NCBI GenBank assembly: GCA_964291405.2
Contig: OZ219926.1
Coordinates: 2,368,001-2,432,000, forward strand
Direction of reading: 5' to 3'
From: Thermodesulfobacteriota bacterium
GTDB taxonomy: Bacteria > Desulfobacterota > Binatia > Bin18
Length of the DNA: 64,000 bases
Of this stretch, positions 2,845 through 28,840 are shown one piece after another (positions within the stretch are counted from its first letter, which is position 1; the number at the start of each line of letters is the position of its first letter). The notes beneath the pieces are model-generated. The model was not told the origin of the DNA. It made no database searches and worked only from the letters and a program-made list of their open reading frames with translations. The translations under genes were made by a program, and so were the position numbers.

Positions 2845-4436
2845 GAAGCCTGAGCAGTGTGCTCCGATGGAGGGAGTGTCAACGGCAGGACGACCCGGAC
2901 TGTGGTTCCGTGATTGACCTTGCTCTCGATCCGGAGTGCGCCGTTATGGGCCATGACAATATGTTTGACAATGGCCAGCCCCAAACCTGTTCCCCCCAAC
3001 TCGCGAGAACGGGCTTTATCCACCCGATAAAAACGCTGGGTCAGACGCGGAATATTGGCTTCCGGGATACCACAGCCAGTATCGGCTATGGCAATCTCCA
3101 GCCAGCCCTGTGCGCCGTTGCCTATGACATCAAGGGCGCTAACATCATGTGCCTCACGAGCGTGCTCCGCGGAGGCGGAATGTCCCCACCATGCCGGTGG
3201 CTCTCCTGCGTCGTCACGCGCAGGGTGCAGTGCCGCGGTGACCGTGACCTGACCCTGAGCTGGTGTATATTTGACCGCGTTGTCGATCAGGTTGATCAGG
3301 ACTTGGTGCAGGCGATCCCGATCTCCTCTCACGGTTGGGAGGGCGGGCGGGATATGCTGAGAGAGGGTGACCCTCCCTCGCTGGGCTTTCTCCTGTAGTA
3401 CATCAAACACTTCCTGGACGAGTTCAGGAATATGGAGTTCCTTCCGATGGAGCTCGGTCTGCCCCAATTCCAGGTTGGATAAAGTCAGGAGGTCGTCTAT
3501 GAGGCGGCTGAGACGCTCCGAGTGCCGGTCAATAATCGTGAGGAAGCGGGTCGCGTGCTCGGGGTCGTGGAGGGCACCCGTGAGCAGGGTTTCCGCATAG
3601 CCTTTGATCGCGGTGAGCGGGGTCCGGAGTTCGTGCGACACGTTGGCCACAAAGTCGGCCCGGATGGATTCGAGCTGTTTGATCGGGGTCAGATCGTGAC
3701 AGCTTAACACATGCCCGCTGGTCGTTGGCTGGCTTTCCCGAGGCGCCCCATATCCCCCGCTCTGGGGCAGGCGCAAGACGCTCACGGCGAGCTGTCGCGG
3801 CTCCTGACCCTCAACTTCGATTTCCTGGGTAACGCCCTCCGCCGATTCTGCGGACAAAAGCTGGTGTAGAACGGGATGGCGGGAAAATTCCTGAAAGGGT
3901 CGGCCCTGCCAGTCTTCCGTTGGGTCCAAACCAAACAAGTGCAGAGCGGCCGGGTTACAGCGCACGATGTTGCCATGCGGATCAATCACAACAAGGCCTT
4001 CAGCCATGCTGTGGAGCAGGGCTTCGAGTTCTTTCTTCTCGTTTTGAAGCTGCTGAAGGTGTTGGCTTTGCGTGGTGAAGAGTCGGGAGAGCTGGTACTC
4101 GATGGTGCCCAACAGGTCGTTTTTTCGGACAGGGAGGGTGGGTGGCGGGACGCGGTTCGGGACAAAAGAGTAATCGTGTCCAGCATCTGTAGGTCTGTTG
4201 GAGGACACGGTTACTCTTTCCGCCAGAAAGGCACTGAGCGCGCTCAAACGCTGCCGGAACTGTGCCCGCTGACGCAGCGCAGTACCTAGGGCGCCAAGAC
4301 CACAGGCAAGGGCTCCATACCAGACCCACTGCGGCCGGGCGTCCGCAGGAAAGAGTAAAAGGAGATGGAGCAGGAGTAGGGCCAGCAAAGCGAGACCGAC
4401 CGGAAACAGAACGGCAAAGGTAATATTGTCTCTCAC
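2841..4436 (-). CDS. phoR: Phosphate regulon sensor histidine kinase
   Basis: Two TM helices, PAS domain, DFVANVSHELRTPLT H-box, NLIDNAVKYT, RFYRVDKARSRELGGTGLGL; directly downstream of phoB. Confidence 0.93.
   Translation of the reverse strand: MRDNITFAVLFPVGLALLALLLLHLLLLFPADARPQWVWYGALACGLGALGTALRQRAQFRQRLSALSAFLAERVTVSSNRPTDAGHDYSFVPNRVPPPTLPVRKNDLLGTIEYQLSRLFTTQSQHLQQLQNEKKELEALLHSMAEGLVVIDPHGNIVRCNPAALHLFGLDPTEDWQGRPFQEFSRHPVLHQLLSAESAEGVTQEIEVEGQEPRQLAVSVLRLPQSGGYGAPRESQPTTSGHVLSCHDLTPIKQLESIRADFVANVSHELRTPLTAIKGYAETLLTGALHDPEHATRFLTIIDRHSERLSRLIDDLLTLSNLELGQTELHRKELHIPELVQEVFDVLQEKAQRGRVTLSQHIPPALPTVRGDRDRLHQVLINLIDNAVKYTPAQGQVTVTAALHPARDDAGEPPAWWGHSASAEHAREAHDVSALDVIGNGAQGWLEIAIADTGCGIPEANIPRLTQRFYRVDKARSRELGGTGLGLAIVKHIVMAHNGALRIESKVNHGTTVRVVLPLTLPPSEHTAQAS
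4165..4219. repeat. ~55-bp palindromic element family A, copy 1 (in frame inside phoR)
   Basis: AAAGAGTAATCGTGTCC...GGACACGGTTACTCTTT inverted arms. Confidence 0.85.
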
Positions 4437-5285: not shown

Positions 5286-6041
5286 TTAGACTGACTCGGG
5301 TAAGGGCGAGATATGGCGTATGCTCTTGCCCTTTGCCAGATAGATCACCATCTCGGCGATATTGGTGGCGTGGTCCGCAACCCGCTCAAGGTATTTGGCG
5401 ATAAACAATATCCGCATGGCGCGGCTGGCGTATTCGGGTTCCCGCCGCATCTGAGACAGCATAGTGTTGAAAATCTGAGCGGTGAGATCATCAATCCGGT
5501 CATCGCGCTGGCATACACTCAGGGCGAGGTCGGGCGCCTCGGCCACAAAATCGCTGAGTTTGTCTCCGAGGGAGACGCGCGTATCGGGGGCAGCAGTGAC
5601 ATCAGAAGAGGACTGCAAAAACGCGTCGAGGCTGTCGCGCAGCATAGCCCGGGCGCCCTCGGCCATTTCGGGTAATTCCGGCCGCGGGGCGAGGGGCGCT
5701 TCCTTATTGAGCTCGATCGCCCGCTCACAGATATTCTCAGCAATATCGCCGATACGCTCAAGATCGGTGGAAATCCGCAGACTGGTGGTAATAAAGCGTA
5801 AATCCCGAGCGGCCGGTTGATGCAGGGCGAGCAGGCGGATACAGGCTTCATCAATGGCGACATCAAGATAGTTGACCATATGGTCACGCTCTATGACCTC
5901 GTGGGCGGTCTGCGAGTCGCGCTCGACGAACGAGGTGAAGGCATCCCCAATCTGCTTTTCAACCAACCCGCCCATTTCCAACACCTTGGCCCGAAGCTGC
6001 TGAAGTTCTTCTTCGTACTGGCTATCCGTATGAAGTGGCAT
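5286..6041 (-). CDS. phoU: Phosphate signalling complex protein PhoU
   Basis: QPAARDLR, DLERIGD and LERVADHATNIAE motifs. Confidence 0.95.
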   Translation of the reverse strand: MPLHTDSQYEEELQQLRAKVLEMGGLVEKQIGDAFTSFVERDSQTAHEVIERDHMVNYLDVAIDEACIRLLALHQPAARDLRFITTSLRISTDLERIGDIAENICERAIELNKEAPLAPRPELPEMAEGARAMLRDSLDAFLQSSSDVTAAPDTRVSLGDKLSDFVAEAPDLALSVCQRDDRIDDLTAQIFNTMLSQMRREPEYASRAMRILFIAKYLERVADHATNIAEMVIYLAKGKSIRHISPLPESV

Positions 6042-6054
6042 AAGGCCTCCGCTT

Positions 6055-6912
6055 CTAGCCGAATCGGCCGGTAATATAGTCTTCAGTTGCCTGTTTTTCC
6101 GGGGTAGTGAATAATTTTTCGGTCTTTCCGAACTCTATCAATTCACCCAAATACATAAAAGCGGTGAAATCCGAGACTCGTGCGGCCTGCTGCATATTGT
6201 GGGTGACGATGACAATCGTATACTGCTTTTTCAGCTCATGGATAAGTTCTTCAATTTTTGTCGTGGCAATCGGATCCAGGGCGGAGCAGGGTTCATCCAT
6301 CAGAACGACTTCGGGCTCAACCGCAATGGTCCGGGCGATGCACAGGCGTTGGTGCTGCCCACCGGATAAACCCAGCGCATTGTCGTGCAGCCGATCCTTG
6401 GCTTCTTCCCAGAGGGCGGCGGCGCGCAGACTCTTCTCAACGATATCATCCAACTGCGCCTTGTTGTGGATACCGAGCACCCGTGGCCCGTAGGCAACGT
6501 TTTCATAGATGGTCTTGGGAAAGGGGTTCGGCTTTTGGAATACCATGCCGACCCGTTTGCGCAGCTCGGTGACGTCAAGCGTTTGATCGAGAATTTGGAT
6601 GCCGCCCACGATAATACTGCCGCTGGTCGTACAGCCGTCGATCAGGTCGTTCAAGCGGTTTAGGCAGCGCAGCAGGGTGGACTTGCCGCAGCCCGACGGG
6701 CCGATGAAGGCCGTTACCTGGCCTCTGGCGATATCCATATCGATATGCTTGAGGGTCTGGGTCCTGCCGTCGTAGCTGAGACACACGTCCCGAATTTCAA
6801 CTTCGATATTGTCCCGCGTGCCGAGAGCGGTGGGGTCATGGCCGTTGCCCGAATCCGGTCGCGGCGGCAGGGTTACGGCGTGCCCGACTGGAGATTTTTC
6901 CTGGCTTTCCAT
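6055..6912 (-). CDS. pstB: Phosphate ABC transporter ATPase
   Basis: [49 protein letters not shown]. Start taken at MESQEK. Confidence 0.95.
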
Positions 6913-6925
6913 ACTCACTCTCCCT

Positions 6926-8554
6926 TTAGAAGGCGCCAAAGCGTAAGCGGCTACGTAAGCGGTTCCGAATCGCAATCGCAGCCAGGTTCAAGGCAATGAC
7001 AATCACAATCAGCAGCAGGGTCGTCATAAAGACCATGGGCTTGGCCGCCTCGACATTCGGCGACTGGAAGCCGACATCGTAAATATGAAACCCCAGATGC
7101 ATAAATTTTCGTTCCAGATGAAAGAACGGCCAATGGCCGTCAACGGGCAGGGTTGGGGCCAGTTTGACCACGCCGGTGATCATCAGCGGAGCGACTTCCC
7201 CGGCGCCACGGGCCATAGCCAGAATCGTCCCGGTCAGGATGCCCGGCAAAGCGCCGGGAATCACAATTTTTCGGAGGGTCTCCCACTTGGTCGCGCCCAG
7301 CGCCAACGAGCCCTCCCGCCACTCTGTTGGGATGGCGGACAAGGATTCTTCGGTGGCGACAATCACCACCGGGACGGTCAGCAAGGCCAAGGTCAACGAA
7401 GCCCACAGAATCCCGCCGGTGCCATAGGTCGGGGTGGGCAGGGAATCCTGGTAGAAGAGCTGGTCCAGCGACCCGCCGATCATATACACAAAAAACCCGA
7501 GGCCAAAGACGCCAAACACAATCGAGGGCACGCCGGCGAGGTTGTTGACCGCAATCCGGACGGCGCGGACCAGCGGACCTTGCTTGGCATATTCGCGTAG
7601 ATACAGGGCGGCGACCACGCCAAAAGGAACCACCACAATGCTCATGATGATGACCATCATGACCGTCCCGAAAATAGCGGGGAACACGCCGCCCTCGGTG
7701 TTGGCCTCGCGCGGGTCTTCCCAAAAGAATTCCCAGAAGCGCGTCACGTACAGGCCGAGGCGTTCAAACCAGTTCATATCGTTGGGCAGAAAACCACGCA
7801 CCACACCGGCGATAGCCAGCTCTTTTTCTTTGCCGTTAATGTCCTGCACAGTCATGTGATAGCGCGAGTTTTCTTGGTATAACGCGGCGAGTTCCTGGGC
7901 TTTTTCCTCGTAGGCCAGTTGCAAAGAGGCGATGGCCTCCTCAAGCGCGGCAATTTTTTCGGCGGCCCTGGTGGGGTCGGCCTCGCTGCGCTGGGTGCGT
8001 TTGACCTCGATGCGCAGTTGTTCGAGCTCGTAGTTAATATCCCCAATATCTTTCTTTTCGATGGCGTGGATATCGTCCAGCGTGTCTTGGGTCCGGGCGT
8101 GGAGTTCCAGGAATTTTGGCCAGGCCTGGTCAAAACCCTCGGCGACGATTTCTCCGTCCTGTCGCACCGTGGTGAGAAAGCCAAAAAACGGGCCCCATTC
8201 ATACCGTTCCAAATATATCGCCTGCTCCGGAAACGCATGCCCGGTCATCAGGCTGTCATCCACCCAGCGAAAATCGGAGCCGTACAGGTCACGGTTGGCG
8301 ACCTGGAATTGCGTCCGGTAGTATTCCCGGACGGCTCCGGTCTGTTGCGGAATAGCCTCCTGGGCACGGACCGACCCCAGGAGCTTTTGTCCGTTCTGAA
8401 GGTCAACGGCCCTGAGTTGGTCGGGCCAGAAGAACCCGAGCGCATTGGCCCCAACGATCCAAATGAGGGCAGCGATCATAAGCAGACTGAAGACCAGAGT
8501 GCCCCCCGTCATCCAGATGAACGGGTCGCCGCTGCGTAGAAAGCCTTTGAACAT
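6926..8554 (-). CDS. pstA: Phosphate ABC transporter permease PstA (large periplasmic-domain type)
   Basis: [42 protein letters not shown]. Start 8554 or 8635. Confidence 0.93.
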
Positions 8555-8621
8555 GCCACCCCCCCTCTTCCCCCCCAAAGGGGGGGATGGGTATTGATGC
8601 GGCACCACGGACGCCGAAGAA

Positions 8622-10964
8622 TTAGATACGGCCATAACGATCTCGTAAGCGCTGGCGGACAACTTCCGCCGCGGTATTGACCAAAAACGTTAAAATAAAG
8701 AGGAGCAGGGCGGCCAGGAAGAGGACGCGGTAGAGCGTCCCGCCGTGAGGCGCTTCCGGGATTTCCACCGCGATATTCGCCGATAAGGCACGGAAGCCGG
8801 TAAAGGGATCAAAGTCCATGACGGGCGTATTACCGGTGGCCATCAGGACAATCATGGTTTCCCCGACTGCTCGTCCGAAGCCGATCATGATGGCCGAGAA
8901 CACACCGGGGCTGGCCGTTGGCAGCACGACCCGCAGGGCCGTTTGCCAGCGCGTCGCCCCCAGCGCTAACGAGCCGGAAATCAGATGCTGGGGAACGTTG
9001 GAAAAGGCGTCCTCACAGATAGTGTAGATAATCGGGATGACGGCAAAACCCATGGCAAAACCCACAATCAGGGAGTTGCGGGGGTCGTACCGCACCCCGG
9101 TGGTGTCGTACAGCCATTGGGGGAAATCACCGGCGAAAAAGGCGGCCTCAAGCGGAGTGTTGAGCACGACACAGATGTAGATGGAGAGCATGAGCAGCGG
9201 GGCCAGGAACAGGAGTTCAGCACCCGGTTTCAGGCTGCTGCGAAAGCCGAGGGGCAGCAGCCGCCAGGCAAATGACGCACCCAGGGTCACCAAGGGCATC
9301 ACGATAAACATCAGCAGCATGGCCGGCACCATATCGGCCACCAGGGGCGCCAGCCACAGACCGGCAAAAAAGCCGAGCACGACGCTGGGCAGGGCGGCCA
9401 TCACCTCGACCGAGGGCTTGACTATATTGCGCAGCCGCGGATGCATGAACTGTGAGGTATACATCGCGCCGCACAGACTGAGGGGAATGGCTAACAGCAG
9501 GGCGTAAAATGTTCCTTTCAAGGTCCCGTAGGCCAGTGGGGAAAGGCTGAATTTCGGCTCAAAATCGTCCGTTCCACTGCTGGACTGCCAGGTATAGTCT
9601 GGGGCGTCATAGCCCTCGTACCATATCTTTCCGAACAGAGAGGAAAAGGTGATCTCCGGATGGGGATTATCAACCGTCCAGTTGTACAACTGGCCTTCTT
9701 GATTGAGAGCGATGATACCATTTGTCCGTGGGGCATAGGCGAGCTGGGTAATCGGGCTGCTGGCTGTGTCGCGGCTCAAAATGGTGGTTTCGGTGGTTGA
9801 ATACTGGATGCGGACCGTGCCGCTGGTATCGCCGGTCACAAAGCCTTTATTCCGTGGAGAGGGAGAGATGGTCGTAATAGGTGCGTCGTGGGACTGCATC
9901 ACATGAATTTCACGGAAGGGAAGTTCGGCCGGATTGTCCTGATCGCGCACCTGGAACCAGACACTCACCCCCCCGGCGTCATCTCCCATAACGAGAGAGC
10001 GGTCGCCAATCAACCAGGCCATTGCCCGGACGGGAGCCCGCCCTTGACCTCGTAAGCGCGGCTTGACCTGGGGCGCAGCGGCGTCGCGAATATCCCAATG
10101 GATCACCTCACCGGTTTCTAGTGCGGCAAACAGGTTTCGCTGTTCTGCATCTAACGTCAACGCCGTCGCGTTCGCATCCAGCGCCGCTGAGAGCTCTGCG
10201 CGGTGTTCCGATACCTGCGTCTCGCCCAAGAATGATTCTTCGACTGTTCGAGACAGGAAGAGGAGGGTGCGTGGGCCGAGCAGGGCGGCCAGTGTCATCT
10301 TCTCCTCGTCTTCGCTGGTACTCTGGTAGGTCAGAGCCTGAATAGCGCGGCCTTGTGGGTCGAGGACAATCGCCTCATCTTCCATAACCTGAGGCGTGCT
10401 GATGCGGGTCTTGCCCTCGAACGAGACCGGGAAGGAAATCGTCAGGGGAACAGCGATACCGTCCGCGGTTCCGAGCACGGCGGTGTGCGTCAGGTTACGA
10501 TAGTGCACCGCGGTGATCCGCCGCCCCTGCAGGGCTTGGATTTCATACCGTTGGAGGAGTTGGTTGTCCGCGAGGGACAGAAAATCAACCGTTCCCGCCT
10601 GGGTAATAGTGTAGGCGATTTCTCGATACTCATCGATGCCCAGCGCGAGGACATTCGTATGGGGCCCACTGCCAACCAGGTCGGTCAGCGGAATTGGCGG
10701 GGTCTCAAGCTCCGCAGTAGGTACCTTCCAGAGGGGTAAGGTTTCGGCCACGATCACAAAAAGAATCGCGGCGATGCTCAGAATCACGGCAAAGCCACCA
10801 CCGGTGATCAGAATAGTCGCAGCCTTATCAACCAGCTTTTTCCGCTGGAGTCGGCTTTTATCCTCGGTCGCCGAGAGACGGACACCGACCGGCTGCGCTC
10901 CGTTTGCGGCCGGTAGCGATGACGGTTGGGAGGGACGTTCCTGCGTCTCCGGCATGATAGACAT
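8622..10964 (-). CDS. pstC: Phosphate ABC transporter permease PstC with beta-propeller periplasmic domain
   Basis: GKIWYEGY, WQSSSGTDDFEPKFSL, LPSVVLG, GRAVGETMIVLMATGN. Confidence 0.93.
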   Translation of the reverse strand: MSIMPETQERPSQPSSLPAANGAQPVGVRLSATEDKSRLQRKKLVDKAATILITGGGFAVILSIAAILFVIVAETLPLWKVPTAELETPPIPLTDLVGSGPHTNVLALGIDEYREIAYTITQAGTVDFLSLADNQLLQRYEIQALQGRRITAVHYRNLTHTAVLGTADGIAVPLTISFPVSFEGKTRISTPQVMEDEAIVLDPQGRAIQALTYQSTSEDEEKMTLAALLGPRTLLFLSRTVEESFLGETQVSEHRAELSAALDANATALTLDAEQRNLFAALETGEVIHWDIRDAAAPQVKPRLRGQGRAPVRAMAWLIGDRSLVMGDDAGGVSVWFQVRDQDNPAELPFREIHVMQSHDAPITTISPSPRNKGFVTGDTSGTVRIQYSTTETTILSRDTASSPITQLAYAPRTNGIIALNQEGQLYNWTVDNPHPEITFSSLFGKIWYEGYDAPDYTWQSSSGTDDFEPKFSLSPLAYGTLKGTFYALLLAIPLSLCGAMYTSQFMHPRLRNIVKPSVEVMAALPSVVLGFFAGLWLAPLVADMVPAMLLMFIVMPLVTLGASFAWRLLPLGFRSSLKPGAELLFLAPLLMLSIYICVVLNTPLEAAFFAGDFPQWLYDTTGVRYDPRNSLIVGFAMGFAVIPIIYTICEDAFSNVPQHLISGSLALGATRWQTALRVVLPTASPGVFSAIMIGFGRAVGETMIVLMATGNTPVMDFDPFTGFRALSANIAVEIPEAPHGGTLYRVLFLAALLLFILTFLVNTAAEVVRQRLRDRYGRI

Positions 10965-21140: not shown

Positions 21141-22637
21141 ATGTTCGAACGAATCTCGATCCTGTGCCTGAGCCTCCTCCTGGTGAGCGTATGGGGCTGC
21201 TCGGCAACCCTCAGACGCCCCTCGGCCAAAGAATATTATCAGCAGGCAACCGACTCTTTCACAGACGAGGACTATCTGGGGGCGTCCGATCAGTATCAGG
21301 AGTTGCTGGATCAGTACCCGCTCAACCCGTACGCTGAGGAAGCCCAGCTCAAAACGGCCTATGGGCTGTTTATGGAAGAAAATTACGCCGAAGCCGTTGC
21401 GGCCTTCAAAGACTTTGAGCGGGCCTATCCGACCAGCACGCATATGCCGTTTGTCAAGTATTTCCTCGGCATTACGAACTATAGTCAGATTCGTTCCAAG
21501 GATCGCGATCAGGCCGTGACGCGCCGGGCGGACGGATTCTTTCAAGAGGTGATAGACCGGTACCCGGAAAGTGCTTTCGTTCTCGAGGCTGAGGAAAAGA
21601 GCAAATCGGCGCGTGACATCCTGGCGGCCCACGAATTGATGGTGGCAAACTTTAACGAAAAGCGTGGAAATCTTACCGCCACAAAAGCACGCTTGCGCAG
21701 CCTGATTGAGCAATACTCCGAGACGGATGCCACCGTTGAAGCCTTGGATCGGCTCGAACAGATATTGAACGAAGAGGGTAACGTCGAGTTGGCCGATTTG
21801 GCGGCCCGCGCTCAGTCTGCACGGAGAGCGACTAGCGAGGCCCCCGGCGCTGAAGAGGATGACCCAGAGGGCGAGGCGACCGACTCGGACGGGCTGCTCG
21901 TTGCCGGAGTTGATCCCTTGCTGTTGCTCGTTTCCGAATTGAAAAAACAGGAAGAGGCGGAACGCCTGGCCCGGACGGAAGCGGATGCAGAAAGGCTGGC
22001 AGCGGAAAAAGAAGCCGAGCAAGAAGAACGCGCCCTGGATGACGCCTTTGACGATGACCGATCCTACGAAGTGGGTGACGATTATCGGGAAGTAGACTTG
22101 GAGGCATTGGAAGCAGAGCGGGCAGCTCTGGAGACTCCCGACATTGAGGAGCTGGAATTCGACGTTGAGACAGACGATCTCGGACCCTTGGAACTGACCG
22201 AGCAGGATGTCTCCGACGAGGACGACATTGGTCTTTCTGACGAGGACATCCTCACCCTTGACGTCGAGAGCGACGCTATTGCGCTTGAGGAAGATGCTGA
22301 AGCGTTGGAAGCCGCTGGGGTGTTGGACGCTGAAGAAGAAGCCGAGGAGGTCGTTGAAGAGATTGCCGTAGGCGAGGACATAACTATAGAAGATGAGGTT
22401 GAAGTCAGTGCAGAGGTGGCCGAGGCAGAAGAGGTCGAGGACGACGAAGCGGTTGCCGCAGTCGAGCTGAGTGAGCCGGTTGAGCTGAATGAGTCAGGGG
22501 TTGAATACGCCGAAATAGATGAGGAAGCTACCTCTTCCGACGCTCTCACGAACGGAGATGTCGCACTCAGAACAGGACGAGAGGCCGTTCTGGGTATCGA
22601 TATTGAGGAAATAGATTTTGAGTTTGAGGACGAATGA
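21141..22637 (+). CDS. bamD: Outer membrane protein assembly lipoprotein BamD with long acidic tail
   Basis: Lipobox VWGC, TPRs (YPLNPYAEEAQL, FERAYP, RDQ, YPES, LAAHELMVANF); about half the protein is an Asp/Glu-rich tail. Confidence 0.85.
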   Translation: MFERISILCLSLLLVSVWGCSATLRRPSAKEYYQQATDSFTDEDYLGASDQYQELLDQYPLNPYAEEAQLKTAYGLFMEENYAEAVAAFKDFERAYPTSTHMPFVKYFLGITNYSQIRSKDRDQAVTRRADGFFQEVIDRYPESAFVLEAEEKSKSARDILAAHELMVANFNEKRGNLTATKARLRSLIEQYSETDATVEALDRLEQILNEEGNVELADLAARAQSARRATSEAPGAEEDDPEGEATDSDGLLVAGVDPLLLLVSELKKQEEAERLARTEADAERLAAEKEAEQEERALDDAFDDDRSYEVGDDYREVDLEALEAERAALETPDIEELEFDVETDDLGPLELTEQDVSDEDDIGLSDEDILTLDVESDAIALEEDAEALEAAGVLDAEEEAEEVVEEIAVGEDITIEDEVEVSAEVAEAEEVEDDEAVAAVELSEPVELNESGVEYAEIDEEATSSDALTNGDVALRTGREAVLGIDIEEIDFEFEDE

Positions 22638-22671
22638 GACCTGGCGCCTAGGCAGAGAGCGAGCGAAGCCG

Positions 22672-22701
22672 AGCCTCTTTCCTCTTGGGAAGAGGCTTTT
22701 T
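22672..22701 (+). terminator. Rho-independent terminator after bamD
   Basis: AGCCTCTT...AAGAGGCT followed by a T run. Confidence 0.7.
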
Positions 22702-22762
22702 ATTCTATGTCGCTGGATATTCTCATAAGGATAGACGCACTGCGTTTGGGAAATAAGACAGC

Positions 22763-23527
22763 ATGAAACACGCTGCATCCCCTATTCCAAAGAGCGTCCG
22801 TGAGGGGAAAGTCCTGGTGGTTGGCGTTGGCGGACTCGGCTCTCCGGCGGCATTGGCGCTCGCCCTGGCTGGGGTGGGAACGATTGGCCTGGTGGATTCG
22901 GACCGGGTCGAGCTGTCAAACTTACAGCGGCAAATTTTGCACTTTACCCCGGATATCGGAAAACCAAAGGTCGATTCGGCCAAGGAAAAAATTCAGCAAC
23001 TCAGTCCCTCGATAACGGTGGTGACCCATAACGAGCGGCTGCATGCGGGGAATCTTGCGGATGTCTTTGCTGCCTATGATTTTATTATTGACGGAACGGA
23101 CGGCGTGGCCACAAAGTTTTTGATCAATGACGGTGCCGTGCTCCTGAACAAACCGCTTTCTCATGCAGGTATTGTCCGGTTTCATGGTCAGGCCCTCACG
23201 GTCTTACCGAGACAAACGACGTGTTTGCGTTGCCTGTTCCCGGTTCCACCTCATCCCGATGAGAATCCCACCTGCCAGGAGGCCGGCATCCTTGGCAGCC
23301 TGGCCGGCAGTTTGGGGAGCGTTCAAGCTGCCGAGGCAGTGAAATATCTGGGTGGGGAAGGAGAACTGCTCACCGACCGTTTGCTCACCTATGACGCCTT
23401 CGCCTTACGCTGGCGAGAGGTTCGGGTACGCCCGAGCCCGCATTGTCCGTTGTGCGGCACGCAGCAGACGATTACGAGTATCCGACCCGAAGCCTATGAG
23501 TTGGAAAGGCTCTGTACTATGCTCTGA
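22763..23527 (+). CDS. ThiF/MoeB-family E1-like adenylyltransferase, active-site subunit lacking the N-terminal RYSR helix
   Basis: GVGGLG, DSDRVELSNLQRQ, GKPKV, DGTD, CLRC, PTCQEAG, CPLC; in-frame TAA at 22754 limits the N-terminus. Confidence 0.9.
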   Translation: MKHAASPIPKSVREGKVLVVGVGGLGSPAALALALAGVGTIGLVDSDRVELSNLQRQILHFTPDIGKPKVDSAKEKIQQLSPSITVVTHNERLHAGNLADVFAAYDFIIDGTDGVATKFLINDGAVLLNKPLSHAGIVRFHGQALTVLPRQTTCLRCLFPVPPHPDENPTCQEAGILGSLAGSLGSVQAAEAVKYLGGEGELLTDRLLTYDAFALRWREVRVRPSPHCPLCGTQQTITSIRPEAYELERLCTML

Positions 23528-23537
23528 GTCTGAGTAT

Positions 23538-23591
23538 AAAGAGGGAACGTGTCCTCCACTAGACACGAGATGCTGGACACGTTTCCTCTTT
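23538..23591. repeat. Palindromic element family A, copy 6
   Basis: AAAGAGGGAACGTGTCC...GGACACGTTTCCTCTTT. Confidence 0.85.
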
Positions 23592-23682
23592 CGGGCAGGG
23601 TGATTGTCAGACCGAAGCAAAAAAGTAACAGTAGAAGCCTATAAAGAGCAGATGAGTGATTCTGAATCAGGAGGGAGTGAAC

Positions 23683-23994
23683 ATGAGTGCGCAGGTCCGT
23701 ATCCCAACCCCGCTACGTCGCTTTACCGGCGGAGCGGAAGCAGTATCGGCCGATGGAGCCACGGTTGGGGCGTTAGTCGATAATATAGAGAGTAATCATC
23801 CGGGGATTAAAGAACGGCTGTGTGATGAGGCGGGCGAAGTCCGTCGCTTTGTCAATATCTTTGTGAATGGTGAAGATATTCGTTTTATCAACAACCTGGA
23901 TACGCCGGTGAACGAGGGCGACGAAGTGTCTATCGTGCCTGCTATTGCCGGAGGTTCTTTTTGCCCCCGCCTCACTACGCTCGGCACCCCCTAG
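23683..23994 (+). CDS. CysO/MoaD-like ubiquitin-like sulfur carrier with a C-terminal extension after GG
   Basis: VRIPTPLRRFTGG, RRFVNIFVNGEDIRF, SIVPAIAGG plus 12 extra residues. Confidence 0.9.
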   Translation: MSAQVRIPTPLRRFTGGAEAVSADGATVGALVDNIESNHPGIKERLCDEAGEVRRFVNIFVNGEDIRFINNLDTPVNEGDEVSIVPAIAGGSFCPRLTTLGTP

Positions 23995-24014
23995 AGAAAA
24001 AAGGGGGGTAAAGC

Positions 24015-25076
24015 GTGTCACGCCTGCTGAAAAGAGTAAACGTGTCCTCCCAGGATAGAGAAGAGATGCTGGACACATCTGCTCTTTTTCCAACCGAGGG
24101 ACCATTAGTAGCAGGTCCCCTGCGTGTCCCGTCTGTGCTGCATCTGATTGGGAATACGCCGCTGCTTGAAACTACCCGGCTGAGTGCGGACATTCCTCCA
24201 GACGTCCGGGTCTATGCCAAACTCGAAGGTTTCAATCCGGGTGGATCGGTCAAAGATCGCCCTGCGCTGTGTATGATCCAAAAAGGGATCGAGAGCGGCG
24301 CGCTGACCCCGGACAAGATCATTCTCGATTCTACCTCCGGGAATACCGGTATCGCGCTGGCCATGATCGGTGCCGTGCTGGGCTATCCGGTCGAGCTGTG
24401 CATCCCGGCCAACGTCAGTATAGAGCGGAAAAAAATCATCTCCGCGTATGGGGCAAAGATGGTTTTCAGTAGCCCCATGGACGGCTCGGATGGAGCCTTG
24501 GAGCTGTGTCGGGAACGGTTGCAAGAGCATCCCGGGCGCTATTTCAAACCGGATCAATACTTTAATCCACACAACTCACTGGCACACTACCAGACAACCG
24601 GGCCGGAGCTGTGGTGGCAGACCAAAGAGCAGATCACCCACTTTGTGGCCGGCATGGGGACCGGCGGCACCCTGATGGGAACCGGACGCTACCTGAAGGA
24701 GAAAAACTCGGACATTCAGATTGTTGGGGTTGAACCGGATGACGCCTTTCACGGCCTTGAGGGGCTAAAGCATATGGACAGTTCCATTGTGCCCGGCATC
24801 TACCATGAAGAGCAGCTTGACCGAAAAATCAGCGTTTCAACTGAAGACGCTTATGAAACGGTGTACCGGCTTGGTAGAGAAGAAGGGGTATTGGTTGGCC
24901 AGTCATCCGGTGCGGCGATGTGGGCGGCGCTCCAGGTGGCCCGTGAGATTGACCGGGGCACGGTGGTGACGCTCTTCCCGGATTTCGGAGACAAATATCT
25001 CAGTACCAATCTGTGGATCGGCTGGAAAGAGTATAATCAACGTCAGGCCAACGGTCGGGCAGAGGGAGCGGCGTGA
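24015..25076 (+). CDS. cysM: PLP-dependent cysteine synthase, CysM-like
   Basis: AKLEGFNPGGSVKDR, STSGNTG, GMGTGGT, GDKYLST; adjacent to the sulfur carrier; start uncertain (24015 or 24066). Confidence 0.85.
   Translation: MSRLLKRVNVSSQDREEMLDTSALFPTEGPLVAGPLRVPSVLHLIGNTPLLETTRLSADIPPDVRVYAKLEGFNPGGSVKDRPALCMIQKGIESGALTPDKIILDSTSGNTGIALAMIGAVLGYPVELCIPANVSIERKKIISAYGAKMVFSSPMDGSDGALELCRERLQEHPGRYFKPDQYFNPHNSLAHYQTTGPELWWQTKEQITHFVAGMGTGGTLMGTGRYLKEKNSDIQIVGVEPDDAFHGLEGLKHMDSSIVPGIYHEEQLDRKISVSTEDAYETVYRLGREEGVLVGQSSGAAMWAALQVAREIDRGTVVTLFPDFGDKYLSTNLWIGWKEYNQRQANGRAEGAA
24030..24088. repeat. Palindromic element family A, copy 7 (cysM 5' end)
   Basis: AAAAGAGTAAACGTGTCC...GGACACATCTGCTCTTTT. 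Confidence 0.8.
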
Positions 25077-25897
25077 CGGAGACATTGGGGTCCATTGGGT
25101 CCATGCTCGAAGACGCTCAGATCGAACGCTATAGCCGACAGATCATTCTACCCCAGGTCGGCGGAAAAGGGCAGGAAAAACTTCTTCGGAGTCAGGTGTA
25201 TGTTGATGGGGACGGGCTGCTCGCCGCCGCTGCGCTTTTTTATCTCGTCGCTGCCGGCGTTGGGACTATTGGCGTGACGCGGGCCAAAGCCGCTCCGATC
25301 TTTTCCGTTCTTGCGGAGCGATCCCTAGGATCAGATGAGCAGCCGGTGGCCCACACCCTCAGGCATCTAAACCCCGATTGTACCCTTGTGACCCATCTGG
25401 ATGAGGACGAACAACCGCCTCACCACTATGATCTGGTTCTGGCAACAACAGATGCATTGCACGATGGGTGGTACGCTCAGCACAAACCGTTTGTGTGGGG
25501 AGCAGCCAGCGGAGAAGGCGCCCGTTTATTCGTGAGCCGGGGAGACAGGGCTGACCGGCCATGCCTGCGCTGTCTTTTCCCGGAAAACCCACCCCGGCCC
25601 TATCGGGCCACCCCTCCGAGGAGGGGAGAGAAAACAGTCCCCTCCTCGGAGGGGTGCCGCGTAGCGGCGGGGTGGATTCCTCCGGACACGGGGACCAAAG
25701 ACCCGCTTGACTCTCCATACGCGCTCTTTTTGGGTACCCAACTCGTCACCGAAGCCCTGAAAATCATCCTCCAGCCTGAGGCGGATAACCCACCAAAACT
25801 ATTGTCATACACATTCCCAGCGTTTCACTGTGTCGAGCAGGCGGTTGAGAAGAACCCGTACTGCTCGGTCTGTTCGACGCCTGCCCAGAGTGCCTGA
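25073..25897 (+). CDS. ThiF/MoeB-family paralogue with a degenerate nucleotide-binding site
   Basis: Keeps [26 protein letters not shown] and CSVC; P-loop reads DGDGLLA; DxD-SNLxRQ motif absent. Start 25073 or 25103. Confidence 0.85.
25609..25678. repeat. CCCCTCC/GGAGGGG palindromic repeat (family C) inserted in frame in moeB-like 2
   Basis: CCCCTCCGAGGAGGGG...CCCCTCCTCGGAGGGGTGCCGCGTAGCGGCGGGGTGG; related sequences at 41902-41940 and 23964-24010. Confidence 0.7.
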
Positions 25898-25914
25898 CTG
25901 AGGAAGAAGAGGAC

Positions 25915-26862
25915 GTGGAGACCCAGGGGCCTCAGCCCGCCTCGAATAAAAAGAATTCCTATTCTCTCACGCATCTCAAGTATCTTGAGGCTGAGAGCAT
26001 TCATATCATTCGTGAGGTGGCGGCTGAGTTCGATAATCCGGTCATGCTGTACTCCATCGGTAAAGATTCGGCGGTCATGCTGCATCTGGCTCGGAAAGCG
26101 TTCGCGCCAGGGAAGCCGCCCTTCCCCCTGATGCATATCGACACGACCTGGAAGTTCCGGGAGATGATCACCTTCCGCGATACCTACATCAGACACGAGC
26201 TCGGCCTCGACCTCATCGTATATATTAACCAGGACGGGGTCAAAGCAGGCATCGGCCCCATTACGCATGGGTCCAAAAAGCACACCGACGTGATGAAGAC
26301 ACAGGCGCTCAAACAGGCGCTCGATCAGTACGGGTTTGATGCGGCTTTTGGGGGTGCGCGGCGGGATGAAGAGAAGTCACGGGCCAAAGAACGGGTGTAT
26401 TCGTTCCGTGACCGCAACCACCGCTGGGACCCCAAGAACCAGCGTCCCGAGCTGTGGAATCTATATAACTCCACGCTTGATAAAGGCGAGAGCATCCGGG
26501 TTTTTCCCTTATCGAATTGGACCGAATTGGATGTCTGGCAATACATCTACCGCGAGAATATCCCGATTGTTCCGTTGTACTTTGCCAAGGAACGTCCGGT
26601 TGTCGAGCGCGATGGGGTGCTGATTATGGTCGATGATGACCGTCTACCGCTCCATCCGGATGAACGGCCGCAATTGAGAAAAGTCCGCTTTCGCACTCTG
26701 GGCTGCTATCCGCTGACGGGGGCGATTGAATCCGAGGCGGACACCCTGCCGTTGATTATTCAGGAAATGCTGCTGGCGACACACTCCGAACGGCAAGGTC
26801 GCGTCATTGATTTTGACCAGTCCGGCTCTATGGAAGAGAAGAAAAAAGAAGGTTACTTCTAA
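25915..26862 (+). CDS. cysD: Sulfate adenylyltransferase subunit 2
   Basis: [47 protein letters not shown]. Confidence 0.97.
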
Positions 26863-26869
26863 TAGCAGG

Positions 26870-28840
26870 ATGTCTCACCAATCTGACCTGATCGCGACCG
26901 ATATCGAAGCCTATCTCGCCCAGCATGAGCGCAAGGACCTGCTGCGCTTCCTGACCTGCGGCAGCGTGGATGACGGCAAGAGCACCCTGATCGGCCGTCT
27001 CCTGTACGACTCCAAGCTGATCTATGAGGATCAGCTTGAGGCGATAAAAAAAGACTCGATTCGGCATGGCACGACCGACACGGAGTTTGATCCCGCTCTG
27101 CTGACCGACGGCCTCAAAGCCGAACGCGAACAGGGCATCACCATCGATGTCGCCTATCGCTATTTTTCGACCGCCAAACGCAAATTCATTATTGCCGACA
27201 CTCCAGGTCATGAGCAGTACACCCGGAATATGGCGACTGGCGCGTCAACCTGTGACTTGGCCATTATTTTGATTGATGCCCGCCATGGTGTCCTGACCCA
27301 AACCCGGCGACACAGCTTTATCGCCTCTCTCTTGGGGATCAAGCACATTGTTGTTGCCGTCAATAAGATGGATTTGGTGGACTACAGCCAGGAGGAGTTT
27401 GAGCGGATAGTCGAAGATTATACCGACTTTGCCGCCAGACTGGAGCTGAGCGATGTGCACTTCCTGCCCATGGCGGCACTGAGCGGCGATAATGTGGTGA
27501 ACAAAAGCGAGCATATGCCGTGGTATACGGGCAGCCCGCTGATGCACCTGTTAGAGCAGGTCTATATTGCCTCGGATACCAATCTGATCGACTTTCGTTT
27601 TCCGGTCCAATACGTCAATCGTCCCAACCTGGACTTCCGCGGTTTCTGTGGCACGGTGGCCTCGGGCATCGTGCGGCCGGGCGATGAGGTCATGGTGTTC
27701 CCGTCGCGCAAAACAAGCCGGGTGAAAGCCATTCATACCTTTGAGGGGGAAGTAGAGCAGGCCATGCCGCCGCTGGCCGTGACCCTGACGCTTGAAGACG
27801 AGATTGATGTCAGTCGCGGAGATATGCTGGTTCATCCCAACAATGTCCCCCTCATCGCCACGCACTTTGAAGCCATGCTGGTGTGGATGGCTGAAGAGCC
27901 CATGCAGCCCGGCAAGCAGTATTTCCTGAAGCAGGCCACCACCATGACGCCCGGAGTCATTACCGACGTGCGGTATCGCATAGACGTCAATACCCTCCAC
28001 CGGAAAGACGCTACGCAACTGGCTCTCAATGAGATCGGACGGTGCGCCTTTGCCCTCGAAAAGCCGATCGCCTGTGACCCGTACCGCAAGAACCGTACGT
28101 CCGGGGCGTTTGTCGTTATTGACCGCCTCACCAATAATACGGTCGGCGCCGGGATGATCATCGACCGAAATCAGTCTTTTGGGACTCCTGGGTCCATTGG
28201 GCCTTGGGGGTCAAGACTCAATGGACCCAATGACTCAATGGACCCAATGAACTCAACTATCCGGGCGGAGACCGGGTTGATTGCCGTGACCGAGCGTGAG
28301 CAGGCCCTGCAGCAGCACGCGCTCACGGTCTGGCTGACGGGTTTGTCAGGCTCCGGAAAATCGTCCATTGCGGAACGACTTGAGCAGCGCCTGCATACGG
28401 AGGGGTTCCATGCCTATCGGCTCGACGGTGACAATCTGCGCCTGGGGTTGAATCGGGACCTAGCATTTTCCGAAATGGACCGTGCGGAAAATATTCGCCG
28501 TATTGCCGAGGTCGCACGGCTCTTTAACCAAGCGGGGCTCATCATTCTGGTGCCGGTCATTGCTCCCTTTCAGGCAGACCGGCAACACGCGGCAGAGGTC
28601 ATCGGTGTGGACCGCTTTTTTGAGGTGTATGTGGACACCCCGCTTGAAGTATGCGAGGAGCGCGATGTGAAAGGACTGTATCAAAAGGCGCGGGCCGGGG
28701 AGATTTCAGACTTTACCGGCATCTCCTCTCCCTATGAACCGCCGCCAACGCCGGCACTCCGACTGACGACGGTTGGTCACACCGTCGAGGAATCTACCGA
28801 TGTCGTGTTTCGGGCGATTGCGGCTCGTATCCGTCTGTAG
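26870..28840 (+). CDS. cysNC: Bifunctional sulfate adenylyltransferase subunit 1 / APS kinase
   Basis: [34 protein letters not shown]; C-terminal [21 protein letters not shown]. Confidence 0.97.
28173..28259. repeat. Inverted array of ~9-bp GGTC/GACC units (family B) in the CysN-CysC linker
   Basis: GGTCCATTG-like units followed by GACTCAATG/GACCCAATG units. Confidence 0.7.

Follow-up and report, generated by a model that had tools for sequence, protein, structure and literature searches.

The window analysed here is a stretch of 64,000 nucleotides from a Thermodesulfobacteriota bacterium (Desulfobacterota; Binatia; Bin18), taken from contig OZ219926.1 of assembly GCA_964291405.2 (positions 2,368,001 to 2,432,000, forward strand). 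At 22763 to 25897 it carries two paralogous genes of the ThiF/MoeB adenylyltransferase family, which enclose the genes of a ubiquitin-like carrier (Ubl) and of a CysM-type cysteine synthase. The upstream paralogue, MoeB1, features the ATP site of the family and lacks its N-terminal helix; the downstream one, MoeB2, features the helix and lacks the ATP site. The two are discussed here as candidate halves of one asymmetric activating enzyme (E1). MoeB1 and MoeB2 serve here as labels and no more. Source annotations name both genes MoeB/ThiF adenylyltransferases, and the first-pass annotation of the window called both MoeB—a loose name, as neither reaches the NCBIfam equivalog cut-off for MoeB, ThiF or MoeZ. 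The features of the unit are as follows.

22763..23527, + strand: MoeB1, 254 aa (Pfam ThiF, 240 bits)
23656..23994, + strand: ThiS/MoaD-type ubiquitin-like carrier (Ubl), CysO-like (Pfam ThiS, 69 bits)
24015..25076, + strand: CysM-type cysteine synthase, pyridoxal phosphate-dependent (Pfam PALP, 238 bits)
25073..25897, + strand: MoeB2, degenerate ThiF/MoeB paralogue, 274 aa (Pfam ThiF, 61.9 bits)
25103..25186, + strand: Arg-finger helix, MoeB2 residues 11-38 (Arg22 codon at 25136-25138)
25580..25685, no strand assigned: palindromic dispersed repeat in MoeB2, residues ~170-205, crossover-loop stretch (48-nt arms, 73% complementary)

Complementary losses in MoeB1 and MoeB2

MoeB1 matches the Pfam ThiF profile over positions 17-237 of 238 (240.4 bits, cut-off 28.1) and aligns to residues 28-248 of Escherichia coli MoeB (E 1.5e-45) and to residues 26-245 of ThiF (E 2.7e-49). 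Because the alignments start at MoeB residue 28 and ThiF residue 26, the canonical ~25 N-terminal residues have no counterpart in MoeB1; only 15 residues stand ahead of its first strand. The P-loop is G21-V-G-G-L-G26, with G24 aligned to MoeB Gly41, and is followed by the acidic pair D45/D47 and by S52-N-L-Q-R-Q57, in which R56 aligns to MoeB Arg73. K69 aligns to MoeB Lys86 and D113 to MoeB Asp130. The zinc cysteines C154/C157/C228/C231 form two CxxC pairs, and C171 aligns, by the alignment offsets, to ThiF Cys184 and MoeB Cys187. The roles of MoeB Gly41, Arg73, Lys86, Asp130 and Cys187 are those given in an excerpt of PMC12355090. MoeB1 thus carries the feature set of active ThiF/MoeB enzymes—GxGxxG, the Asp of strand 2, the Arg of NLxRQ, Lys86 and Asp130—and this set, like all catalytic residues, is invariant in 26 aligned sequences of MoeB1 orthologues, whose mean column identity is 75%. 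All scores against the NCBIfam equivalogs lie below the cut-off: 276.3 against 449 for NF006444, 173.5 against 376.55 for TIGR02355 and 206.7 against 275.25 for TIGR02356. A weak match to TIGR03882 reaches 33.1 bits (cut-off 36.9).

Upstream of MoeB1, an in-frame stop codon (TAA, 22754-22756) is read from the sequence at the third codon before the ATG, and the 400 nt upstream of the P-loop of the window's MoeB1 hold no [RK][YFW]xR[QHN] motif in any of the forward frames. A missed N-terminus—by a frameshift, a small upstream open reading frame (ORF) or a wrong start—was considered and is ruled out by this stop together with the lack of the motif upstream. A 19-codon ORF at 22707-22766, noticed by eye, ends in ATGA overlapping the ATG of MoeB1; it was rejected as an N-terminus, as it holds no RYxRQ-like motif, and in some related loci such an ORF is impossible because the frame of the upstream BamD-like gene runs into MoeB1. 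The first-pass annotation had listed the GxGxxG, DxD and SNLQRQ motifs, the zinc cysteines and the loop Cys of MoeB1, and had described the protein as starting about 15 residues before the first strand, without the RYSRQ helix and behind a stop at 22754; sequence and alignments agree with it on every count.

MoeB2 matches Pfam ThiF in two stretches (61.9 bits, cut-off 28.1). The more probable start is the ATG at 25103 (M11), at which 20 of 23 aligned homologues begin. It features the helix motif E18-R-Y-S-R-Q-I-I25 and the zinc cysteines C164/C167/C264/C267. Its alignments start at ThiF residue 3 and MoeB residue 4, and by these offsets Arg22 corresponds to ThiF R11 and to E. coli MoeB R14. 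The ATP site is replaced throughout: GDGLLA stands for GxGGxG, R70/K72 for DxD and FSVLAER for SNLxRQ, the K86 position is without a Lys, and the catalytic-loop Cys is lost as well. The motif set of active enzymes is therefore absent, and none of the replaced positions is conserved in the family. The earlier description of MoeB2—ERYSRQII and zinc cysteines retained, P-loop and SNLxRQ gone—holds with one refinement: the window copy retains two of the three P-loop glycines and also D127 (the D130 equivalent), neither of which is conserved across the MoeB2 family. Scores against the NCBIfam MoeB/ThiF/MoeZ equivalogs are at most 86.5, below the cut-offs. As judged from these residues, MoeB2 is almost certainly unable to bind ATP.

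The crossover loop, which in active relatives is the loop of the catalytic Cys, carries the palindromic repeat in the MoeB2 of the window's lineage. This repeat has 76 matches at E <= 0.01 in its own genome (both strands, query included), and its insertion in frame accounts for the Pro/Arg/Gly-rich insert of the protein. The loop is evidently free to vary in MoeB2. Contigs of other sequencing runs pile up at 25585-25627 with unrelated flanks, and an Rfam scan of 22500-26000 yielded sub-threshold hairpin matches on the palindromic repeat only.

Conservation, descent and predicted assembly of the pair

Queried with MoeB2, the database yielded intact homologues whose identity ranges from 99% to ~40%. 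An alignment of 23 of these shows little or no variation in the helix stretch and at the four zinc cysteines; around the P-loop it is variable and bears insertions, and the stretch that replaces DxD...SNLxRQ varies freely. A MoeB2 profile scan with one genome per species gave 32 orthologous loci (L008-L039) at 36-91% identity, and canonical MoeBs of other phyla rank below all 32. The recurrent gene order is BamD-MoeB1-(ThrC-like)-Ubl-(CysM)-MoeB2-CysD-CysNC, with two variants: four loci (L035-L038) are without CysM, and at least 10 have the ThrC-like gene, placed after MoeB1 and before the carrier. MoeB1 is truncated in 29 of 29 complete copies from related, Binatia-labelled loci as in the window's, and no RYxRQ-like motif appears even when the frame is read from stop to stop; this count leaves out L024 and L032, which end before the gene, and L027, which holds its 3' part only. 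In none of the 29 loci is the start codon more than ~32 residues ahead of the P-loop. Within the 400 nt upstream, read in three forward frames, no RYxRQ-like motif occurs in 29 of 30 loci (window included), the sole match lying 382 nt upstream. The orthologues of MoeB2 show the reverse: ERYSRQ is kept in 32 of 32, and the P-loop, DxD, SNLxRQ and Lys are gone. The complementary pattern is far beyond chance, as it recurs in every related locus examined. Co-occurrence of a truncated MoeB1 with a degenerate MoeB2 in other genomes, on which the first-pass annotation had made its proposal depend, is thus found throughout (29/29 and 32/32 related loci).

MoeB2 is under purifying selection, more loosely than its neighbours. 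The ratio of nonsynonymous to synonymous substitution rates (dN/dS) is 0.27-0.40 for MoeB2 in nine pairs with dS < 1; in the same pairs it is 0.11-0.21 for MoeB1, 0.07-0.14 for CysM and 0.05-0.16 for CysD. The pseudogene-like decay that the earlier proposal had named as its own undoing is therefore not what these values describe. Constraint is distributed unevenly along the protein. Among the 32 orthologues, identity per 10-residue bin is 85-98% over residues 11-40; it is 45-54% over residues 71-90, where the ATP site used to be, and 18-22% over the crossover-loop stretch 171-210. Thirty-one positions are invariant—17 of them within residues 11-35, Arg22 included—and the invariance, in orthologues down to ~36% identity, is concentrated in helix, interface and zinc cysteines.

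The descent of the pair was followed in 151 genomes of the same class with the MoeB2 profile. Each of the 19 genomes in the window's family scores above 240 bits (the window's own included, and the match in genome G345 being split); the three genomes of a second family, f3, reach 141-171 bits, and the scores elsewhere in the class stay at or below ~136 bits. Eighteen regions from class and phylum were fetched for motif scoring. Matches of ~270 aa elsewhere in class and phylum (125-168 bits) were considered as further MoeB2 copies and discarded, since they proved in these 18 regions to be mostly canonical, intact MoeBs. Four operons of the Binatia class (L102-L105) hold a single MoeB with helix, P-loop and SNLxRQ all intact, and their genomes have no MoeB2-like match above ~136 bits. 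Family f3 features three different states: both paralogues are intact in L106; both retain helix and ATP site in L100, where the catalytic-loop motif of the downstream copy is altered; and in L101 the upstream paralogue is helix-less, the downstream one having lost the Asn of SNLxRQ and the equivalent of Asp130. Outside the class, two intact MoeBs flank a ThrC-like gene and the carrier in L094, L095, L098 and L099. In L097 (genome G020, another class; 8025-8858 and 5299-6135) the RYxRQ helix is missing from the upstream paralogue and nothing is lost from the downstream one; outside the window's family, this locus may represent a first step toward the same split, or that split arrived at independently.

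A maximum-likelihood tree (quick search, 74 of 99 rows, unrooted) places the 23 MoeB2 rows in one clade with a long stem (support of 100 in the SH-like approximate likelihood ratio test), adjoined by the downstream paralogues of f3. The 20 truncated MoeB1 rows fall on one side of a branch with support 90; beside them stand the upstream paralogues of f3 and the helix-less gene of L097, followed by the genes of the single-MoeB operons. The simplest reading of these sequences would be an old duplication within the operon, then formation of a heterodimer, then complementary loss—the order of the steps being only inferred, because the tree is unrooted.

Two side observations belong to this series. 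In L096 (genome G036, another class) the gene at 3371-4210 has an RYSRH helix fused straight to ...GLGCPA, the first strand and most of the P-loop being deleted; an intact paralogue stands beside it at 228-1037, so that this locus shows a different route to an inactive, helix-bearing paralogue. In MoeB2 itself, Cys103 (25379-25381, in the motif LNPDC) does not vary in any of the orthologues, and the intact downstream paralogues of f3 have it already. The canonical MoeBs compared have V at this position, which adjoins the predicted interface residues 98-101.

A complex prediction was carried out for MoeB1 and MoeB2 with their own alignments, in three runs and with three controls. The ipSAE score is 0.91 in three of three runs, the best of the three controls reaching 0.01; at least 92% of contacts are shared between the runs, and the partner pLDDT is at least 75. 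The mark applied to this score is reached by 58 of 80 solved complexes and by 2 of 110 mismatched pairs, a calibration that is rough where own alignments are used. The predicted interface comprises residues 15, 18-23, 25-26 and 28 of the MoeB2 helix and residues 51-52 and 54-58 of MoeB1, namely the SNLQRQ segment of the ATP site. It also contains a symmetric helix pair formed by MoeB1 174-190 and MoeB2 211-230. Identity at the predicted interface of MoeB2 is 72%, as against 53% in the rest of the protein (Mann-Whitney p = 7e-4, indicative only, the sequences being related). The prediction supports a MoeB1-MoeB2 dimer in which the MoeB2 helix would lie against the SNLQRQ segment of MoeB1.

Carrier, sulfur genes and surroundings

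The carrier likely starts at the ATG at 23683 and exceeds the NCBIfam cut-offs for SAMP1 (65.3 bits, cut-off 60) and for moaD_arch (53.6 bits, cut-off 49.5). It ends in ...AIAGG, followed by a tail of 12 residues, SFCPRLTTLGTP (23959-23994). The position of this tail after the Gly-Gly implies proteolytic maturation. In 31 related loci the Gly-Gly is terminal in 16 carriers; nine have similar tails, three end in SG and three have other short tails. The ORF of CysM opens at a GTG (24015), the true start possibly being the ATG at 24066; the protein passes TIGR01136 cysKM (350.9 bits, cut-off 344.15) and lies below the cut-off of TIGR01138 cysM (378.5 against 394.2). The arrangement typical of CysO systems—a ThiS/MoaD carrier with Gly-Gly beside CysM and an E1—is thus present. 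The operon contains no JAMM gene and no rhodanese domain. A stand-alone Mec-like JAMM gene is found elsewhere in the same genome at C3:3669849-3670196 (L088; Prok-JAB 64.2 bits, cut-off 25). A third ThiF-family gene lies ~2.1 Mb away on the same contig (G000:C3:4497800-4498534; L001 1066-2286) and encodes a 406-aa rhodanese-MoeB fusion with the rhodanese loop CAGGVRS, the helix motif RYARH and an intact P-loop and SNLQRQ. It is probably the housekeeping E1 for the carriers of molybdenum cofactor or thiamine synthesis.

In many sister operons (among L025-L038 and L089-L106) a ThrC-like gene of ~427 aa with an N-terminal CxxC...CxxC occurs; the window's operon has none. Its presence suggests that the same carrier also feeds a homocysteine synthase of the MetM type in those operons. 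The neighbours of the unit in the window are the following.

21141..22637, + strand: BamD/YfiO-like lipoprotein with acidic tail (Pfam YfiO, 131 bits)
25915..26862, + strand: CysD, sulfate adenylyltransferase small subunit (Pfam PAPS_reduct, 195 bits)
26807..28840, + strand: CysN-CysC fusion, GTPase subunit and APS kinase (Pfam GTP_EFTU, 160 bits; APS_kinase, 212 bits)

CysD stands downstream of MoeB2 in most of the related loci, and from its gene content the unit is a sulfate-activation and protein-thiocarboxylate cysteine operon. The BamD/YfiO-like gene stands upstream of MoeB1 in most related loci and is probably outside the system although a conserved neighbour. After it, a GC-rich hairpin with a T run at 22660-22705, terminator-like as judged by eye, lies ~60 nt before the start of MoeB1; hairpin and 19-codon ORF are not conserved where the BamD-like frame abuts MoeB1. 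The operon is flanked by PhoX-like genes downstream and a polyphosphate kinase gene upstream.

The genome is that of a sponge-associated bacterium and comprises 4.95 Mb in three contigs. The closest public relatives of the window are labelled Candidatus Binatia, and the public runs that hold this stretch are mostly sponge metagenomes. RNA data cover the region by short metatranscriptome contigs only, which give no level of transcription, may include DNA carry-over and carry no meaning for the parts left uncovered. A contig of 233 nt with 0 differences spans 24910-25139, that is, the end of CysM and the start of MoeB2; the other RNA contigs are 90-95% alike and therefore derive from relatives.

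Candidate heterodimeric E1 and its relation to known systems

We propose, at a probability of roughly 0.62, that MoeB1 and MoeB2 assemble into an E1-like adenylyltransferase that is heterodimeric and asymmetric, has one active site and serves the CysO-like carrier. MoeB1 would bind ATP-Mg and the Gly-Gly C-terminus of the carrier and adenylate it. MoeB2 would be a pseudoenzyme that retains the dimer interface, a structural zinc site and the N-terminal helix, from which the invariant Arg22 would reach the ATP site of MoeB1 in trans as a substitute for the helix that MoeB1 has lost. In the window the 12-residue tail of the carrier would have to be cut first, plausibly by the stand-alone Mec-like JAMM peptidase. 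The acyl-adenylate would then be converted into a carrier thiocarboxylate, with sulfur supplied perhaps as sulfide from the assimilation fed by CysD/CysNC or as a persulfide, possibly by way of Cys171 of MoeB1, and CysM would use the thiocarboxylate to form cysteine. Cys103 of the MoeB2 lineage may be a new sulfur-relay residue in place of the missing rhodanese domain. MoeB2 may matter as much for stability, as the sole partner whose helix fills the groove of MoeB1, as for catalysis.

Several points weigh against this proposal. An excerpt of PMC13139853 (2026) describes the arginine fingers found in MoeB and in ThiF as catalytically non-essential and E. coli TcdA as having none, and gives for the R59A variant of yeast Tcd1 a decrease of only 26% in the ratio of cyclic N6-threonylcarbamoyladenosine to its uncyclised form (ct6A/t6A). 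As the MoeB and ThiF fingers are non-essential, MoeB1 might work without MoeB2. MoeB and ThiF homodimers have been solved, so that passing the complex prediction shows likeness to them and not binding of these copies, and the prediction cannot separate the heterodimer from a MoeB1 homodimer. The rhodanese-MoeB fusion, being complete, could also pair with MoeB1. MoeB2 itself evolves 2-3 times faster than MoeB1; the dispersed repeat sits in its frame and is translated within the protein; and in genome G345, of the same genus, the MoeB2 match (C1:781281-782045) falls into two pieces, profile positions 1-63 and 49-232, through a frameshift or a sequencing error. For expression, one short RNA-library contig is the whole of the direct evidence.

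The dispensable finger leads to the reading that MoeB1 is a self-sufficient homodimeric E1 without a finger, similar to TcdA, and that MoeB2 is an accessory pseudoenzyme and not a catalytic partner: it could hold or deliver the carrier, serve as a scaffold for CysM, relay sulfur through Cys103 or regulate. The retention of every in-cis catalytic residue in MoeB1 and the non-essential fingers of MoeB and ThiF (PMC13139853, in excerpt) agree with self-sufficiency, as the invariance of Cys103 (LNPDC) in the MoeB2 lineage agrees with an accessory role. We hold this reading to be unlikely, as it leaves unexplained why conservation in MoeB2 peaks in the helix, and above all at Arg22, why the helix of MoeB1 is found missing only where a helix-bearing paralogue shares the operon, and why MoeB2 conserves a homodimer-type interface that is predicted to dock on MoeB1. 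A pairing of MoeB1 with the rhodanese-MoeB fusion, which would contribute both finger and persulfide and leave MoeB2 redundant or in another role, would make use of a complete enzyme (RYARH, P-loop, SNLQRQ and rhodanese loop) and would supply the rhodanese that the operon lacks. The fusion is encoded ~2.1 Mb away, however, and rhodanese-type MoeBs of ~400 aa occur class-wide whether or not MoeB1 is truncated, so that they do not co-vary with the truncation as MoeB2 does; such a pairing is improbable. Least credible is MoeB2 as a decaying, functionless relic of an old duplication, its complementarity to MoeB1 being coincidental. Long branches and faster evolution, the repeat in the frame and the split match of G345 would suit a relic; a frame without interruption in all 32 loci as well as in the window, dN/dS far below 1, and 31 invariant positions in orthologues as distant as ~36% identity would not, and we consider it very improbable.

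The first-pass annotation had gone further than the proposal made here and spoken of an obligate heterodimeric E1. The heterodimeric part of this claim agrees with complementary losses that are conserved and co-inherited; "obligate" finds no support, given the non-essential fingers of MoeB and ThiF (PMC13139853, in excerpt). The same source confirms its premise that a MoeB subunit receives the Arg finger in trans, and says so of ThiF as well. The stronger version—that Binatia independently evolved an obligate E1 with eukaryote-style asymmetry, in which MoeB2 donates finger and interface, MoeB1 is unable to act alone and the relatives preserve successive steps—is tentative, and we rate it as rather doubtful. 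A bacterial carrier E1 divided into a catalytic and a pseudoenzyme subunit would by itself mean that E1 asymmetry can arise without any conjugation machinery. If the stronger version were true, an arginine finger that is dispensable in E. coli MoeB could become indispensable, and the related loci would form a natural series showing how E1 asymmetry becomes entrenched after duplication. As small soluble proteins with "before" and "after" states, the paralogues would offer a tractable system for the transition from a homodimer to an obligate heterodimer. There is a consequence for annotation as well, as pipelines call both genes MoeB/ThiF adenylyltransferases although one is almost certainly without ATP binding. 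The comparative evidence is strong, and a link to the origin of E1 asymmetry would be attractive.

Textbooks contrast the symmetric MoeB/ThiF homodimers of bacteria with the asymmetric E1s of eukaryotes, which consist of an inactive and an active half. E. coli MoeB-MoaD and ThiF-ThiS share the fold and the catalytic and zinc residues of MoeB1. An excerpt of PMC12355090 presents MoeB and ThiF of E. coli as symmetric homodimers, with ATP and carrier bound by each subunit; each of their subunits has its own N-terminal helix, whereas here the features are split over two genes. For prokaryotes, the same excerpt of this 2025 review mentions E1-like enzymes of two forms only, homodimers and an E1-E2 fusion (E2, conjugating enzyme). 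Operons of carrier, E1, JAB and cysteine synthase with a rhodanese-fused E1 are described by Iyer et al. 2006 (PMC1779556), and the excerpted part lists no operon with two E1s. In the limited set of literature searched, no description was found of a bacterial heterodimeric E1 of the MoeB/ThiF type or of these Binatia genes.

The grouping of a carrier, a CysM-type enzyme and an E1 is shared with CysO-CysM-MoeZ-Mec of mycobacteria and MetO-MetM-MoeZ-Mec of Streptomyces. The mycobacterial CysO pathway uses O-phosphoserine. The ThrC-like gene beside the carrier in many sister loci resembles Streptomyces MetM, a homocysteine synthase that depends on the carrier thiocarboxylate; the roles of MetO, MetM, MoeZ and Mec are given in PMC13759103, Table 2, cited from an excerpt. 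In contrast to the CysO and MetO pathways, the system described here features two E1 paralogues without rhodanese in place of one rhodanese-fused MoeZ, has its JAMM gene outside the operon, and has CysD and CysNC joined to it. Loss of ATP binding in a ThiF-fold protein of bacteria is known from the C protein of thiazole/oxazole-modified microcin (TOMM) synthesis, the non-catalytic partner of the YcaO cyclodehydratase, which binds the leader peptide. The weak TIGR03882 match of MoeB1 belongs here. The C protein has YcaO as its partner, however, and no active E1 paralogue whose active site it would complete.

Among eukaryotic enzymes, SAE1-SAE2 (UBA2) and NAE1 (APPBP1)-UBA3 likewise pair an inactive chain, devoid of a nucleotide site, with an active one, both paralogous and of the adenylation fold, in a pseudosymmetric dimer. 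MoeB1 and MoeB2 share this feature of two paralogous adenylation-fold chains, one without nucleotide site. The assignment of SAE1 as the inactive and SAE2 as the active half of the SUMO E1, on which the first-pass annotation had drawn, is that of PMC12355090 (in excerpt), where Arg57 of the inactive and Arg515 of the active half of UBA1 hold the γ-phosphate site as in MoeB. Compared with SAE1-SAE2, MoeB1 and MoeB2 consist of the adenylation domain alone (254 and 274 aa), with neither a catalytic-cysteine nor a ubiquitin-fold domain, and no E2 is found among the operon neighbours (CysM, CysD, CysNC, BamD-like, PhoX-like). With catalytic-cysteine domain, ubiquitin-fold domain and E2 all missing, the product is likely a biosynthetic thiocarboxylate, not a protein conjugate. 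On the tree, MoeB1 and MoeB2 fall among paralogues from bacteria, which argues for an origin independent of eukaryotic E1s. The closest counterpart is Tcd1-Tcd2 of yeast, a heterodimer that arose by duplication of a ThiF-fold protein and acts as a tRNA ct6A dehydratase (PMC13139853, 2026, in excerpt). There the subunit judged inactive gives Arg59 as a finger to the ATP site of its partner and the active subunit returns none, an arrangement like the one proposed for MoeB1 and MoeB2. Tcd1-Tcd2 differs in being eukaryotic and anchored to the mitochondrial membrane, in having a tRNA and not a Ubl as substrate and in an extra C-terminal domain; moreover, Tcd1 lacks only one arginine of the ATP site in the excerpted account (PMC13139853), whereas MoeB2 has lost nearly the whole site. 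By analogy, MoeB1 and MoeB2 would function like the adenylation core of SAE1-SAE2 and NAE1-UBA3, and even more like Tcd1-Tcd2, while being a member of none of these systems.

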